DNA of 64,000 bases from Candidatus Zhuqueibacterota bacterium (lineage in GTDB: Bacteria > Zhuqueibacterota > Zhuqueibacteria > Oceanimicrobiales > Oceanimicrobiaceae): NCBI GenBank assembly GCA_029262005.1, contig JAJDAG010000038.1, forward strand, positions 180 through 64,179. The letters are read 5' to 3'. Position numbers and translations under genes: made by a program. This document shows positions 48,659-52,079 of the stretch, in pieces. The notes beneath the pieces were generated by a model. That model was not told the origin of the DNA and made no database searches. It saw nothing but the letters and a program-made list of their open reading frames with translations. Within the stretch, counting starts at the first letter, position 1; each line of letters opens with the position of its first letter.

Positions 48659-49546
48659 GTGGTTTCCATGGACCTGACAGAGATAAGAGATTACCAGGTA
48701 GACGGAAAAATATGCAATAAGCTCTGCTTCAGCCTTTATGAGGGAATGAGCCGTTTGACAGGAGAAAAACGCTTTCTCAAGGTTCTTGACGAAGCCCTGA
48801 GTAAAGATGAAACCTGTGTTTTTGATTACCTGAACGGAGCTCGTTTAAGCAGCTTGCTTGAGTGCAATCAGGTCTGCAGGGTGTACCATTACGGCAAGGA
48901 AGCCGGCCATTATGTGATCGTTTCGGAGCACGTAGCTGAAAAATCGCTGAGTTTGTTTCTACAGGAGCAATTCCCTCTGGACATGAAGCATGTGACGGAT
49001 ATCATCAACAATATTGCCAGGACGCTGAGAGAGGTTCACTTGCGTGGCCTGGTGCACAGTGTGCTTAACCCGAGTTGTATTTTTGTCAACGAAGAAGGGT
49101 ATGTTAAACTTGATGATTTTGGCTACAATTGGGCTGTGCCGTATTTGTTCCAGCGAGAAGAACCGGAATCTACTTACCTTTCACACTATCTTTCACCCGA
49201 AGTCTATTTTCATCGTGGTAGAATTGATGGCCGGGCTGATATCTACTCGCTTGGTGTTGTTTTCCTGCAACTCCTCACAGATAATTTTAGTCTCAACGGA
49301 CATGTTAATGCCACTTTTAAACACTCTTTACTGTTGGCCACCATGCATAAAGCAAAACGGATTTACCCGAAAAACGCAGAGCAAATCGAGAAAATTCTCA
49401 CAAGAGCGTTAAGTCTTAATCCGGGAGACCGGTATCAAAACATGAATGAGTTTGCTGCTGCCATGAAGGTGCTTAAACCTGAAATGCCGGCGGTTGGTGC
49501 CATCTACCTAAAAGTAAAAAAAAGCCCAAAGAGACCCGGTTCATGA
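48659..49546 (+). CDS. Soluble Hanks-type pseudokinase (kinase domain only)
   Basis: 'RFLK', 'HSVLNPSC' in place of HRDxKxxN, 'DDFG', 'YLSPE', 'ADIYSLG', 'PGDRY'. Confidence 0.8.
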   Translation: MVSMDLTEIRDYQVDGKICNKLCFSLYEGMSRLTGEKRFLKVLDEALSKDETCVFDYLNGARLSSLLECNQVCRVYHYGKEAGHYVIVSEHVAEKSLSLFLQEQFPLDMKHVTDIINNIARTLREVHLRGLVHSVLNPSCIFVNEEGYVKLDDFGYNWAVPYLFQREEPESTYLSHYLSPEVYFHRGRIDGRADIYSLGVVFLQLLTDNFSLNGHVNATFKHSLLLATMHKAKRIYPKNAEQIEKILTRALSLNPGDRYQNMNEFAAAMKVLKPEMPAVGAIYLKVKKSPKRPGS

Positions 49547-49567: not shown

Positions 49568-51076
49568 TCAGTTATTCAAAGCAAAACCACGGCGGTCTTT
49601 GCGGCACTTTTCTTCCTCAATCAGTTTTATCAAGCCGGCTTGGAGTGATTGTTCGGCCAAAGGCCACAAATCAACATTGACATCGTTGTACACAGTCTGA
49701 ACCAGTTTTTTTATTGCTTGTGGTTTGCGTGTTAGTGAAGTCAGTATTTTGTCTTCGCGTTCCTGTCTGTGTTTGATGAAATGTTGTACCAGGAGTTTGC
49801 CTGTTTTCACAGCAGAACCGTGACTGGGATATATCGTCCCATCCGTGATGGTTTCGAGAAATTGCAGCGAGCGCATGTAAGTTGCCATGTGCCCCTCAGG
49901 TGGTGCAATTATGATTGTTGAGAGAGTGGAGAGCAGGTCCCCGGCGATGACGGCGCCATAGCGGCTTTCCCGAAATGTAAGGTGACCGGCTGCATGTCCC
50001 GGCGTGTGATAAATGTTCAATTTCCACTCAGGTTCGCCATCCGGGGTTTTACCCAGCTCTAATTCATCGCCATGGTTAAGGGGCCGTTCAAAGTCGATAT
50101 CGGTAAGGTGAGCGATCGTGTTTTTATGCGCGAAAACAGGCAGTCCGTACTTTTCCTGGCATGCCGACACAGCACCAACATGATCAGCGTGATGATGCGT
50201 GAGGAGAATCCCTTTCAACTGCCTGCCTTCAGCAACTCGTTTTTCCAGATAATCCCAAAGGCGCTGTTGTTCAGCAGGTTCCGTCGGGGCAGGGTCGATG
50301 ATGTAGAGTTGTTCATCTCCAACAAGATAGCAGTTCGTGTGGGTCGCCGGGGCCAATGTCCGGGTTTTTAATGGCAGCATGTGCACGCCCGGAGTAAAAT
50401 AGATTTCGTGAATCGCACCTTGCTTGTACGCCTCCGCCTGGACCCTGACGCTGTGAATGCAATGCTCCCAGGTTTGCCCAAGAAGCTCGCGCAGCATAAA
50501 GATGACCGGTGGAACAATAGACATTTCACCCTTTTGCCACAGGTTGAATGCGCGCTCGGCAGTATAAAAATCACCGCTGATCAGCTCCCCCTCGAGTATG
50601 GTTGGCTCTTGTCCTGCAGGCATTTGCACCTTATAAAATTGTGTGTCATAACGAATTGGCGCAAATTCGGGTGTCAGCAGCGATACCACAAAGTGAAAAT
50701 CTCGTGCATCAATTACCAGGCCCTCTTGCTGTAGAATTTCATTGAACCCTAGTTCTTCAGACAGTAAGTCTTTGCGGTACAGTGCCAGACGTTCTGCTGA
50801 AATAGCGGCCGAAGCACGCGCGAGAAGTACGCCGGTTTCTTCGAAAGTTTCCCTGACAGCAGCGGCTATGTACGGCAATGACTCCGCTGGTACGGCTTCA
50901 CTGTGTTCAATCCTTACTTCCTTGTCCGGCAAATCAAGGGTACCGCCGGGATAGGCAAAATAGCCACCAAAAAATTTTAGCTTCGGGTTACGCTCAACCA
51001 GGTATATTTTTTTTGGGTCGCTTCTGTGGGTCAGGATAATAGTGACTGCTTTGCGTTCAGCCATATAAGCATCCAT
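49568..51076 (-). CDS. NUDIX hydrolase fused to LACTB2-like metallo-beta-lactamase and winged helix
   Basis: 'YPGG...AAVRETFEETG'; 'LTHHHADHVG', 'TPGHAAGH', 'AGD', 'PSHG'. Confidence 0.9.
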   Translation of the reverse strand: MDAYMAERKAVTIILTHRSDPKKIYLVERNPKLKFFGGYFAYPGGTLDLPDKEVRIEHSEAVPAESLPYIAAAVRETFEETGVLLARASAAISAERLALYRKDLLSEELGFNEILQQEGLVIDARDFHFVVSLLTPEFAPIRYDTQFYKVQMPAGQEPTILEGELISGDFYTAERAFNLWQKGEMSIVPPVIFMLRELLGQTWEHCIHSVRVQAEAYKQGAIHEIYFTPGVHMLPLKTRTLAPATHTNCYLVGDEQLYIIDPAPTEPAEQQRLWDYLEKRVAEGRQLKGILLTHHHADHVGAVSACQEKYGLPVFAHKNTIAHLTDIDFERPLNHGDELELGKTPDGEPEWKLNIYHTPGHAAGHLTFRESRYGAVIAGDLLSTLSTIIIAPPEGHMATYMRSLQFLETITDGTIYPSHGSAVKTGKLLVQHFIKHRQEREDKILTSLTRKPQAIKKLVQTVYNDVNVDLWPLAEQSLQAGLIKLIEEEKCRKDRRGFALNN

Positions 51077-51176
51077 GTTTTTTTGAAGTAATGTAATAAA
51101 TATTGTTGCTCGTGGTTTGTAGAAAAAGGTGATGATGAATATAGAATAAAAGGAGCAAATGAAAAGGGGAAAATGA

Positions 51177-51205
51177 TTGACTTTAACAATGTCAGCATAT
51201 ATATT
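51177..51205 (+). promoter_or_regulatory. sigma70 promoter
   Basis: TTGACT-N17-TATATT. Confidence 0.7.
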
Positions 51206-51211
51206 AAAACT

Positions 51212-51430
51212 AATTCCTAAAGCCGGGTATTTAACCAGGGGAATGCCGGGTGATTGTTGTAACGCCCTGAAAAAGGAGGTGATTCTATTTCTAGCAAATT
51301 AGATATAGAGACCTCCGCAAGAACCTGCTAAACCAGTTGGTCAATCAATCGATCTGAAGCTAAATAGGAAAGCAAAGTTCTTCGGAGTTTTCTGAACGGT
51401 ATAGCCCCGCTATTTGGCGGGGCTTTTTTT
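51212..51430 (+). ncRNA. Candidate structured small RNA (or sORF mRNA), family not recognised
   Basis: Bounded by a promoter and an intrinsic terminator; several predicted helices; extended SD AAAGGAGGTGATTC with no canonical start codon at normal spacing. Confidence 0.6.
51403..51430 (+). terminator. Rho-independent terminator
   Basis: AGCCCCGC...GCGGGGCT followed by TTTTTT. Confidence 0.88.
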
Positions 51431-51572
51431 GTTTGATCAATTTATAACATAGTTTCCGTGAGTTGAACTGAGATATAAACAAAAAAATGCTTTATTTTGT
51501 AACATCATCTCGATATATTAACCTTCTTTTTAAGGTGTTCTGTTATTGAATTTTGCTTGTTAATCTGGAGAA

Positions 51573-52079
51573 TTGGAAATGATCAACAAAAATGTAGAAG
51601 AAGCCCTGAATGTGCAAGTTCAAGCCGAGTTTTCTTCGGCCTATCTGTATCTTTCAATGGCAGCCTATTGCGAATCAATAAGCCTGCCCGGCTTTGCGCA
51701 TTGGATGCGTTTGCAACATGAGGAAGAGACTGCACACGCATTGCGGTTGTTTAATTTTGTCATCGATCGCGGTGGTCATATTGATTTGCGTGCCATAGAA
51801 AAACCGGTAGGATCTTTTGAGTCACCGCACAAAATGTTTGATGAAGTTTTGGCGCATGAGCAGTTGATAACGGAAAAGATTCACAATTTGTATGCGCTAT
51901 CGGTTAAGGAAAACGATTATCCGACTCAGGTTGAAATGCAGTGGTTCATTAGTGAGCAGGTTGAAGAAGAAAAGAATGCGGGTGGCATTGTTGAGCAGTT
52001 AAAATTTGTCGGTGACAGCAGCTCGGCGCTGTTAATGCTCGATAGAGAAATGGGAGTCCGCCTGACAGAGGCCAAGTAG
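51573..52079 (+). CDS. ftnA: Non-haem ferritin
   Basis: 'EFSSAYLYLSMA', 'EEETAHA', 'HEQLIT', 'QWFISEQVEEE'. Confidence 0.93.
   Translation: MEMINKNVEEALNVQVQAEFSSAYLYLSMAAYCESISLPGFAHWMRLQHEEETAHALRLFNFVIDRGGHIDLRAIEKPVGSFESPHKMFDEVLAHEQLITEKIHNLYALSVKENDYPTQVEMQWFISEQVEEEKNAGGIVEQLKFVGDSSSALLMLDREMGVRLTEAK

Follow-up and report, generated by a model that had tools for sequence, protein, structure and literature searches.

What does a bacterium gain from a small RNA that offers the ribosome a long Shine-Dalgarno (SD) sequence, folds it away into a hairpin and has neither a canonical start codon behind it nor a gene to regulate? This question is raised by a predicted RNA of ~220 nt on contig JAJDAG010000038.1 of Candidatus Zhuqueibacterota bacterium, of which a stretch of 64,000 nt was analysed (the window, to which all coordinates refer unless a locus is named). 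An initial annotation, made from the letters alone, had singled out this element as a stand-alone RNA with a switchable complement to the 3' end of the 16S ribosomal RNA (rRNA). Its sequence coordinates all agree with the letters, and the features exceed chance because they are conserved in relatives; by the comparative evidence the observation is confirmed and is a trait of a whole family. We describe here what is, as far as sequences can tell, a stand-alone, single-copy gene for a structured RNA and the founder of a new family. It is best read as a ribosome substrate rather than as the leader of a neighbouring gene. With a probability of about 0.5, we regard it as a ribosome-engaging, translated bistable RNA, in which a mini open reading frame (mini-ORF) would be read from a start codon that initiation factor 3 (IF3) discriminates against. 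Transcription, 30S binding, translation and IF3 sensitivity are what we infer from the comparisons reported here. The parts of the predicted RNA, all on the plus strand, are:

51177 to 51205, plus strand: sigma-70-type promoter, TTGACT (51177-51182), 17 nt, TATATT (51200-51205), 10 of 12 matches
51212 to 51431, plus strand: RNA gene of ~220 nt, its 5' end inferred from the -10 box
51221 to 51252, plus strand: P2 hairpin, 51221-51232 with 51241-51252, the loop carrying AACCAGGG
51236 to 51269, plus strand: H-type pseudoknot PK1, CAGGG of the P2 loop (51236-51240) with CCCTG (51265-51269)
51273 to 51285, plus strand: SD box AAGGAGGTGATTC, family consensus AAGGAGGUGAUCC, the complement of the 16S 3' tail
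51275 to 51316, plus strand: SD-sequestering hairpin (state A), 51275-51280 with 51311-51316 and 51283-51288 with 51305-51310
51287 to 51331, plus strand: mini-ORF, ATT plus 13 codons plus TAA (51329-51331), encoding I/M-SSKLDIETSARTC
51312 to 51316, plus strand: CCTCC anti-SD strand, within the ORF, the partner common to both competing helices
51317 to 51382, plus strand: 3' domain, with closing helix, GCU/AGC and CCAGUUGG/CUAAAUAGG hairpin, the stop codon at its base
51377 to 51393, plus strand: state B partner, GTTCTTCGGAG plus TTTTCT, pairing with 51307-51324 when the SD is open
51403 to 51431, plus strand: intrinsic terminator, stem 51403-51424 of nine pairs (seven G-C), then a T run

For comparison, 66 distinct homologues of 173-252 nt were gathered, loci found by both a DNA search and a pattern scan being collapsed to one. 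A 'long' type of 221-240 nt occurs in the window's taxonomic family, L026 is of an intermediate type of ~200 nt, and the members found elsewhere are of a 'short' type, mostly of 173-206 nt, with L096 (252 nt) as an outlier. In all 66 members an AUU, AUA or AUC codon (AUH) follows GGAGG after 5-8 nt, the distance being 7 nt in 52 of them, and none has an AUG, GUG or UUG start at SD spacing, as had been noted for the window. The starts could be parsed in 64 members (AUU in 50, AUA in nine, AUC in five); those of L069 and L075 were read by eye, and both are AUU. The window's ATT at 51287 does open 14 codons up to the stop at 51329-51331, and 14 codons are also the most frequent length among the 64 parsed frames (35 members), followed by 13 codons (24 members). 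The five exceptions, of 15, 15, 16, 19 and 26 codons, have lost the usual stop. This stop (UAA, UAG or UGA) is structurally fixed: it lies within the loop of the 3' hairpin or at the hairpin's base, even in Fibrobacterota members that have the loop GCUGAAG instead of GCUAGCA. Between the start codon and a conserved R-G-R-R-C-C-U-C-C, 51 distinct versions of the segment are found, with lengths of 13 or 16 nt only, and the 87 stop triplets that they contain are distributed over the three frames as 0, 41 and 46, with none in the frame of the mini-ORF. As judged from these sequences, such a pattern would be difficult to obtain without selection for openness. The comparative data therefore indicate a reading frame under selection, as is expected of a dual-function small RNA (sRNA).

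The encoded peptides are little conserved outside G-A/T-S-G, with wide variation at positions 2-7 and 12-13, and G-A/T-S-G is itself fixed at the nucleotide level, third positions included, as pairing would demand. They have 13-14 residues, are hydrophilic and are rich in Ser, Gly, Arg and Asp; no signal sequence, hydrophobic segment or membrane helix was found in them, which sets them apart from type I toxin peptides, as these are hydrophobic and usually exceed 20 residues, with a membrane helix. Of the earlier suggestion of a non-AUG mini-ORF mRNA with type-I-toxin-like control by folding, the open frame is strongly supported, whereas the toxin analogy is weak because the peptide has only 13-14 residues and is hydrophilic.

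A start at AUH is not foreign to these organisms. The gene infC has the classic IF3-autoregulated start, known from E. coli, where IF3 discriminates against the weak start codon. In the window's own genome infC (L101:1460-1490, contig C59) has no canonical start; the SD sequence AAAGGA is followed after 6 nt by AUU. In five other carriers (L102-L106) infC begins with AUU or AUC behind an SD, with no AUG, GUG or UUG, and the layout, with 6-9 nt after the SD, is found in 6/6 carriers examined. Since infC uses an SD with AUH in the six carriers, the start of the RNA is of the kind that these cells use, and by analogy with infC it would be expected to respond to IF3. The RNA resembles the infC initiation region in that an SD is followed, after 5-9 nt, by an AUU, AUA or AUC start (66/66 members). 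It differs in that its frame of 13-14 codons lies within a stand-alone structured RNA and its SD is, with 13 nt, far longer, while infC opens a real protein gene. A deeper likeness was considered, namely a 9-nt identity (CUAUUAGUA) between infC of the own genome and the short-type consensus; it was dismissed as chance because infC of the other genomes lacks it. A close parallel comes from Staphylococcus aureus, where infC starts with AUA and this start, like two other AUA/AUU starts, is accompanied by an extended SD motif; initiation at these codons reaches ~10% of that at AUG and is subject to modulation by IF3 (Kohl et al., 2026, PMC13009471). The combination of an extended SD with an AUA or AUU start is shared with the RNA, and at the S. 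aureus sites it lowers initiation and makes it tunable; those sites open ordinary genes (infC, cvfC1 and ccpN), however, and none is a stand-alone switch RNA (PMC13009471).

The SD box had been described as a 14-nt complement to the canonical 16S tail with one G-U pair (AAAGGAGGTGATTC, 51272-51285). This complement is present in the window, and most relatives carry a perfect 13-mer. The tail used here, GGATCACCTCCTTTCT, was taken from two other carrier genomes, because in the own genome no assembled 16S rRNA was found and in five relatives only a 5' fragment of it. With L100, L098 and L099 parsed wrongly or not at all, 64 boxes were compared. Of these, 36 match the tail perfectly over 13 nt by Watson-Crick pairing (AAGGAGGUGAUCC), and 51 form 13 contiguous pairs with it when wobble pairs are counted. 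The substitutions are mostly wobble-compatible transitions, commonly A to G facing U or C to U facing G. Within UGAUCC, the G-A has no partner in the internal hairpin and is yet conserved, and in canonical members the A changes only to G; this points to a partner outside the RNA. Selection of the box for pairing with the 16S tail is supported by these comparisons. SD sequences are in general use in this genome, where 37% of 2152 long ORFs have an SD 4-mer at -18 to -5, compared with a background of 5% at -45 to -32. The 11-mer AAGGAGGTGAT occurs nine times in the own genome, mostly without a long frame after it, so that a long SD is unusual but not unique to the RNA. Several of these sites lie just 5' of TTG or ATT codons without a long frame and may be further mini-ORFs.

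Access to the box is predicted to depend on two competing helices. According to the initial annotation, the SD is buried in a hairpin (GGAGGT 51275-51280 with ACCTCC 51311-51316, plus TCTAT/ATAGA) and is freed when the anti-SD strand pairs downstream instead (CTCCGCAAGAAC, 51313-51324, with GTTCTTCGGAG, 51377-51387). Both pairings are present, the SD is conserved among the relatives, and the two helices are conserved and covary. The architecture was scored on an alignment of 33 sequences, in which 94.0% of the specified structure is paired, a share that drops to 39-56% once the partners are shifted by 1-3 columns. The state A hairpin is paired in all 33 sequences, with 100% of cells paired and eight pairs invariant; pair 82-107 of the alignment is CG in 31 sequences and UA in two, and distant members add the compensatory variants CUUAU/AUAAG and CCCAU/AUGGG. 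An SD masked by an intramolecular fold is a trait that the RNA shares with type I toxin mRNAs. For state B, the helix is 90.7% paired on the long-type alignment, with compensatory changes, versus 32-68% when slid. Its pair 111-202 is A-U in five sequences and G-C in four, and in state A the same 5' base faces an invariant U. When the SD was held unpaired in folding, CCUCC paired with the downstream GGAG(G) box through at least three of its five bases in 31 of the 33 sequences, and through four of five in the window sequence. In nested folding models the closed state A is the more stable one, with a median difference of 5.6 kcal/mol in the 33 sequences (from 0.9 to 10.1) and a value of 5.7 kcal/mol for the window sequence; without constraint, the fold of minimum free energy (MFE) is that of state A for 19 sequences, B-like for 13 and a different one for the last. 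Linked changes in the three strands are seen in two lineages. L069 and L075 have the SD core AGAGG, the anti-strand CCUCU and downstream CAGA, so that both partners have followed a single substitution in the strand that they share, at the cost of one mismatch to the 16S tail. L088 has GGGGG, CCUUU and GAAGG. Both competing helices thus bear, at the level of sequence, the marks of selection. The proposal that the SD is gated by conformation is supported by this conservation and covariation of both alternatives.

Upstream of the box, all 11 pairs of P2 show changes on both sides (11/11). PK1 is 97.6% paired, and its CCCUG strand lies just 5' of the SD box; alignment pair 31-64 is AU in 28 sequences, GC in two, UA in one and GU in one, and a change from A-U to G-C within PK1 is seen in L033 and L017. 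The 5' H-type pseudoknot is, on this covariation, a conserved feature of the family. A helix that had been proposed at 51248-51267 (GGGTG/CGCCC) proved to be private to the window sequence and overlaps CCCTG 51265-51269 of PK1; this hairpin was rejected in favour of PK1 by covariation. Downstream, the 3' domain of the short type is a simple hairpin with the loop GCUAGCAC, and the long type has an additional hairpin inserted directly 3' of the stop codon. As a tentative candidate for a second pseudoknot, the 5' end could pair with the 3' hairpin loop, which is persuasive in some members only: 6-7 bp can form in L028, L021, L032 and L042, but only 3-4 bp in many others. Own pairs average -5.0 kcal/mol versus -4.1 kcal/mol for swapped ones, with 0 of 2000 permutations as good, a result that is inflated by relatedness and was obtained with L091, L094 and L100 omitted. 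The MFE of the 223-nt stretch is -70.1 kcal/mol (z = -2.94 against shuffles; 2 of 200 shuffles were equally good).

The boundaries of the gene agree with a transcript of its own. A covariance-model match of 170 bits at L001:1541-1762 corresponds to window positions 51210-51431. The promoter TTGACT-N17-TATATT and the strong terminator are both found where they had been placed, and the promoter is the top-scoring promoter-like site of the region. Its -35 box, TTGACTTT, aligns in all of the 13 long-type relatives but L010, which has TTGCTT (12/13), and a simple pattern of -35 box, N16-18 and TAnnnT stands 5' of 35 of 65 members. The terminator stem covaries (alignment pairs 223-251), and a 3' run of at least four T is found in 57/65 members. 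As far as predicted signals go, the RNA would thus be an independent transcript with its own promoter and terminator, as dual-function sRNAs are. It is the sole copy in its genome, in which no paralogues were found. On the minus strand nearby, the only promoter-like site is at 51165-51138, 5' of the RNA. A listed 41-codon TTG frame (51177-51302, plus strand) begins within the promoter and is not conserved.

How these parts could work together may be pictured as follows. While being made, the RNA would fold 5' to 3' into state A, with the SD closed. A 30S subunit would dock on the exposed flanks of the box, invade the hairpin and capture the box by strand exchange, and the freed CCUCC would re-pair with the 3' box to give state B, which would largely offset what it costs to open the hairpin. 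The next step, initiation at the weak AUH, would be inefficient and IF3-sensitive. Elongation would then carry the ribosome through CCUCC and the 5' half of the 3' hairpin stem to a stop in or at the base of the hairpin loop, and its passage would remodel or reset the fold. In such a scheme the functional product is probably the engagement of the ribosome and the change of fold, and not the peptide. What this engagement would be good for is a more tentative matter. The RNA may read or buffer initiation capacity or fidelity, which we regard as a possibility of low confidence, and the same doubt attaches to the specific form of a free-standing, ribosome-operated sensor that reads the free 30S pool and IF3 fidelity via the AUH mini-ORF and whose fold change acts in trans.

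Several points weigh against a translated switch or limit the evidence for it. The frame lies almost wholly within conserved helices, and structure could therefore explain part of its constancy; GGAGCCUCCGG is invariant even at synonymous positions, which places the constraint at the level of the RNA and not of the peptide. On a tree made from the non-ORF parts, the minimum numbers of changes are nine between 13 and 14 codons, eight in the start codon (all within AUH) and four in spacer length, with the spacer 5' of the start shifting by single bases, but these counts are indicative only, as the tree is weakly resolved on ~150 columns and kinship of the members overstates the number of independent events. 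The nested models behind the folding energies ignore the pseudoknot and proteins. One divergent, AT-rich subgroup of Fibrobacterota has lost the GAUCC extension of the box. Moreover, the family was not found in 113/151 and 133/151 of the genomes searched in its two phyla, and this patchy occurrence means that the RNA is either dispensable or diverged past the reach of the model.

An RNA that binds 30S subunits need not be translated. It could be a decoy or sponge for free 30S, or a protector or chaperone of the 16S 3' tail, with the AUH codon blocking productive initiation and the switch setting its availability. The 13-nt complement to the tail is the most conserved element, with its wobble-compatible substitutions, no member (0/66) has an AUG, GUG or UUG start, the fold is bistable, and there is no cis target among the neighbours, all of which would suit such a function. 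However, a decoy needs no open frame, yet the stops fall 0/41/46 by frame, the segment lengths change in steps of 3 nt, and a stop codon (UAA, UAG or UGA) is kept at a constant structural place despite different loops; an AUH behind an SD is, in addition, a working start at infC in carrier genomes. This idea, be it in the form of a sponge or of a protector of the tail, appears unlikely to us. If, conversely, the frame is what matters, then the peptide fM-S-S-x-x-x-I/M-G-A/T-S-G-x-x-C/R might be functional and the structure merely regulatory. The frame is indeed kept open, and Ser 2 is coded by UCU/UCA and by AGU, which hints at selection at the amino acid level. A regulated micropeptide gene is nevertheless improbable given the wide variation of positions 2-7 and 12-13, a G-A/T-S-G that is fixed down to third positions as pairing demands, and peptides with neither a signal sequence nor a hydrophobic segment, next to which no conserved modifying, export or sensing gene is found. 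The roles of the two strands could also be reversed, CCUCC being an anti-SD seed with which a trans-acting sRNA represses mRNAs and the SD-like box its autoinhibitory lid. Some known sRNAs do target SD regions with seeds rich in C, or in C and U, and CCUCCG is invariant in the 33-sequence alignment and alternately masked. What such an sRNA leaves unexplained is the conservation of UGAUCC with its hairpin-unpaired G-A, the 16S-directed wobble pattern, the AUH at SD spacing and the constraint on the frame, and we consider it quite improbable.

Two further ideas turn on the neighbourhood. The window's RNA is flanked by an MBL-fold gene on the minus strand and then by ferritin, gpmA and ZupT-like transporter genes on the plus strand; upstream lie:

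48659 to 49546, plus strand: Ser/Thr-kinase-like ORF
49568 to 51076, minus strand: protein of 502 residues with an MBL-fold hydrolase domain in its C-terminal half

The MBL-fold protein is encoded upstream in three long-type loci (L001, L002 and L027). The initial annotation had offered a regulatory leader for ferritin as one possibility, in which the mini-ORF would be a leader peptide and the terminator an attenuator. A short ORF does lie 5' of a terminator, and ferritin is the downstream gene in 9/34 loci, all of the long or intermediate type, with its start in the window ~150 nt beyond the terminator. The ferritin gene lies past the terminator every time, though, and the other 25 of the 34 loci have other neighbours, of which 10 are convergent. 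In 24 of the 34 loci the gene that follows has the orientation of the RNA and in 10 it is convergent; no conserved, co-oriented downstream gene or operon, as an attenuator would have, was found. Ten other downstream genes are mutually unrelated, three of them without a Pfam family; the other seven encode a UbiE-type methyltransferase, TetR, a DEAD-box helicase, a class A penicillin-binding protein, a Na/Ca exchanger, Lnt and an AMP-binding enzyme. An antiterminator, or any pairing of the 3' box with the terminator stem, was not seen by eye in L028 and the long type, in an inspection that was not systematic. Because the neighbouring genes are not conserved, the ferritin leader is rejected as largely refuted, and a cis leader or attenuator of whatever downstream gene is highly improbable. 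Finally, the RNA might be an orphan riboswitch-like sensor, in which a small molecule or a protein (for example a translation factor or ribosomal protein) bound to the 5' pseudoknot would set the state of the SD hairpin. The H-type pseudoknot is compact, with a conserved AACCAGGG loop, and lies 4-6 nt 5' of the SD box, and in the state-B fold of L034 CCUCC pairs with the Gs of the loop; against this stand the lack of a riboswitch match in Rfam, of a regulated gene other than the mini-ORF and of a clue to a ligand from the neighbours. We consider such a sensor very unlikely; it would be compatible with the translated bistable RNA, to which it could supply the input.

The preferred reading, that of a ribosome-engaging and translated switch, combines traits of several known systems. 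Like the trpL and pheL attenuators, the RNA has a short frame in mutually exclusive helices followed by an intrinsic terminator, and Phe_leader and Trp_leader give weak, terminator-driven matches (24.9 and 16.7 bits versus gathering thresholds of 55 and 41, respectively); unlike these attenuators, it has no conserved downstream operon and no run of regulatory codons. With hok-type mRNAs it shares an SD that is masked by long-range pairing and opened by an alternative fold. Its peptide, in contrast, is short, hydrophilic and without a membrane helix, and its locus is chromosomal, single-copy and vertically conserved. The dual-function sRNAs SgrS/SgrT, RNAIII/hld and SR1/SR1P encode peptides of at least 26 residues from canonical starts, and their base-pairing targets are known. 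The RNA is like them in being a small, structured and, by prediction, independent transcript with a short frame, and it differs in that this frame overlaps the switch itself and starts at AUH. Its invariant single-stranded candidates for pairing in trans are the SD box and the 3' box. The pseudoknot operators of rpsO/S15 and of the alpha operon (S4) trap 30S subunits as leaders of ribosomal-protein operons and have a known protein ligand. Here, too, a pseudoknot lies beside the ribosome-binding site, in the absence of an operon or a known ligand.

Taken singly, the parts are all known from leaders that act in cis: a switch that masks the SD, a leader-like mini-ORF and a weak start that is sensitive to IF3. 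What is new is their combination in a stand-alone, vertically conserved RNA gene that has no gene to regulate, and a categorically new function is possible. If the ribosome docks on and translates this RNA, it would be a compact natural system for the invasion of structured sites by the 30S subunit, and a model both for a very long SD that offsets a weak start codon and for the monitoring of initiation capacity. Should the sensor reading be true, an RNA-level gauge of initiation capacity with no attached gene would be present across two phyla of the Fibrobacteres-Chlorobi-Bacteroidetes (FCB) superphylum. In any case an uncatalogued RNA family is added to two little-studied, mostly uncultured phyla. 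One member (L033) lies in a genome labelled Caldithrix abyssi, a cultivated species, which makes the idea testable.

How widely the family is spread was followed with several searches. In the DNA search, 12 of 20 further genomes from the window's taxonomic family, all of other genera, proved to carry the RNA, and no match was obtained in 20 genomes outside that family. A pattern scan of a species-level genome collection yielded 29 loci, the carriers of which are labelled as Calditrichota, Caldithrix or Calditrichaceae metagenome-assembled genomes (MAGs) or as Fibrobacterota MAGs (Chitinivibrionales, Chitinispirillaceae), with a few labelled Bacteroidetes, Cytophagia or plain 'bacterium'. A first covariance model (R1) gave one full-length match in each of 42 loci. 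A second model (R2), built from 33 sequences, gave strong single matches of more than 70 bits in 38/151 sampled genomes of the window's phylum, a tally that counts the unpublished genome G105, of which no sequence was used, and matches at E<=1e-8 in 18/151 genomes of a second phylum (around G159). Four genomes, all of the second phylum, have two divergent copies, namely G219 (L088/L097), G250 (L092/L100), G256 (L095/L099) and G270 (L093/L098); every other carrier has one. At the gathering thresholds of Rfam 15 no match was obtained in the whole 64-kb window, and in 15 homologue loci no family matched at the RNA. A permissive scan of 51050-51600 returned sub-threshold, terminator-driven matches only, the best of them with 24.9 bits versus a threshold of 55. 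The impression that the RNA does not resemble tmRNA, signal recognition particle RNA, RNase P or a riboswitch is borne out by this check of the window and the 15 loci, 6S RNA included. No published description was found in a literature search at abstract level, nor an entry in Rfam 15, and in terms of sequence the RNA is a previously uncatalogued family of two related bacterial phyla.

Some loci deserve separate mention. At the end of its contig, L037 has a partial second match to the 5' third of the model (L037:2230-2302, plus strand, 31 bits), which lies on the other strand, ~100 nt away from the complete copy, and may be a diverged or duplicated copy. In the member at L024:5994-6200 (minus strand), a G+C-rich palindrome is inserted into the linker that joins P2 to the pseudoknot strand; this member was excluded from alignments and counts because the inserted hairpin shortened its match to the model. 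In L036, a locus on the Fibrobacterota side, a thiamine pyrophosphate (TPP) riboswitch (RF00059, 75.3 bits) is found at L036:4300-4396, unrelated to the RNA at L036:1764-1954.

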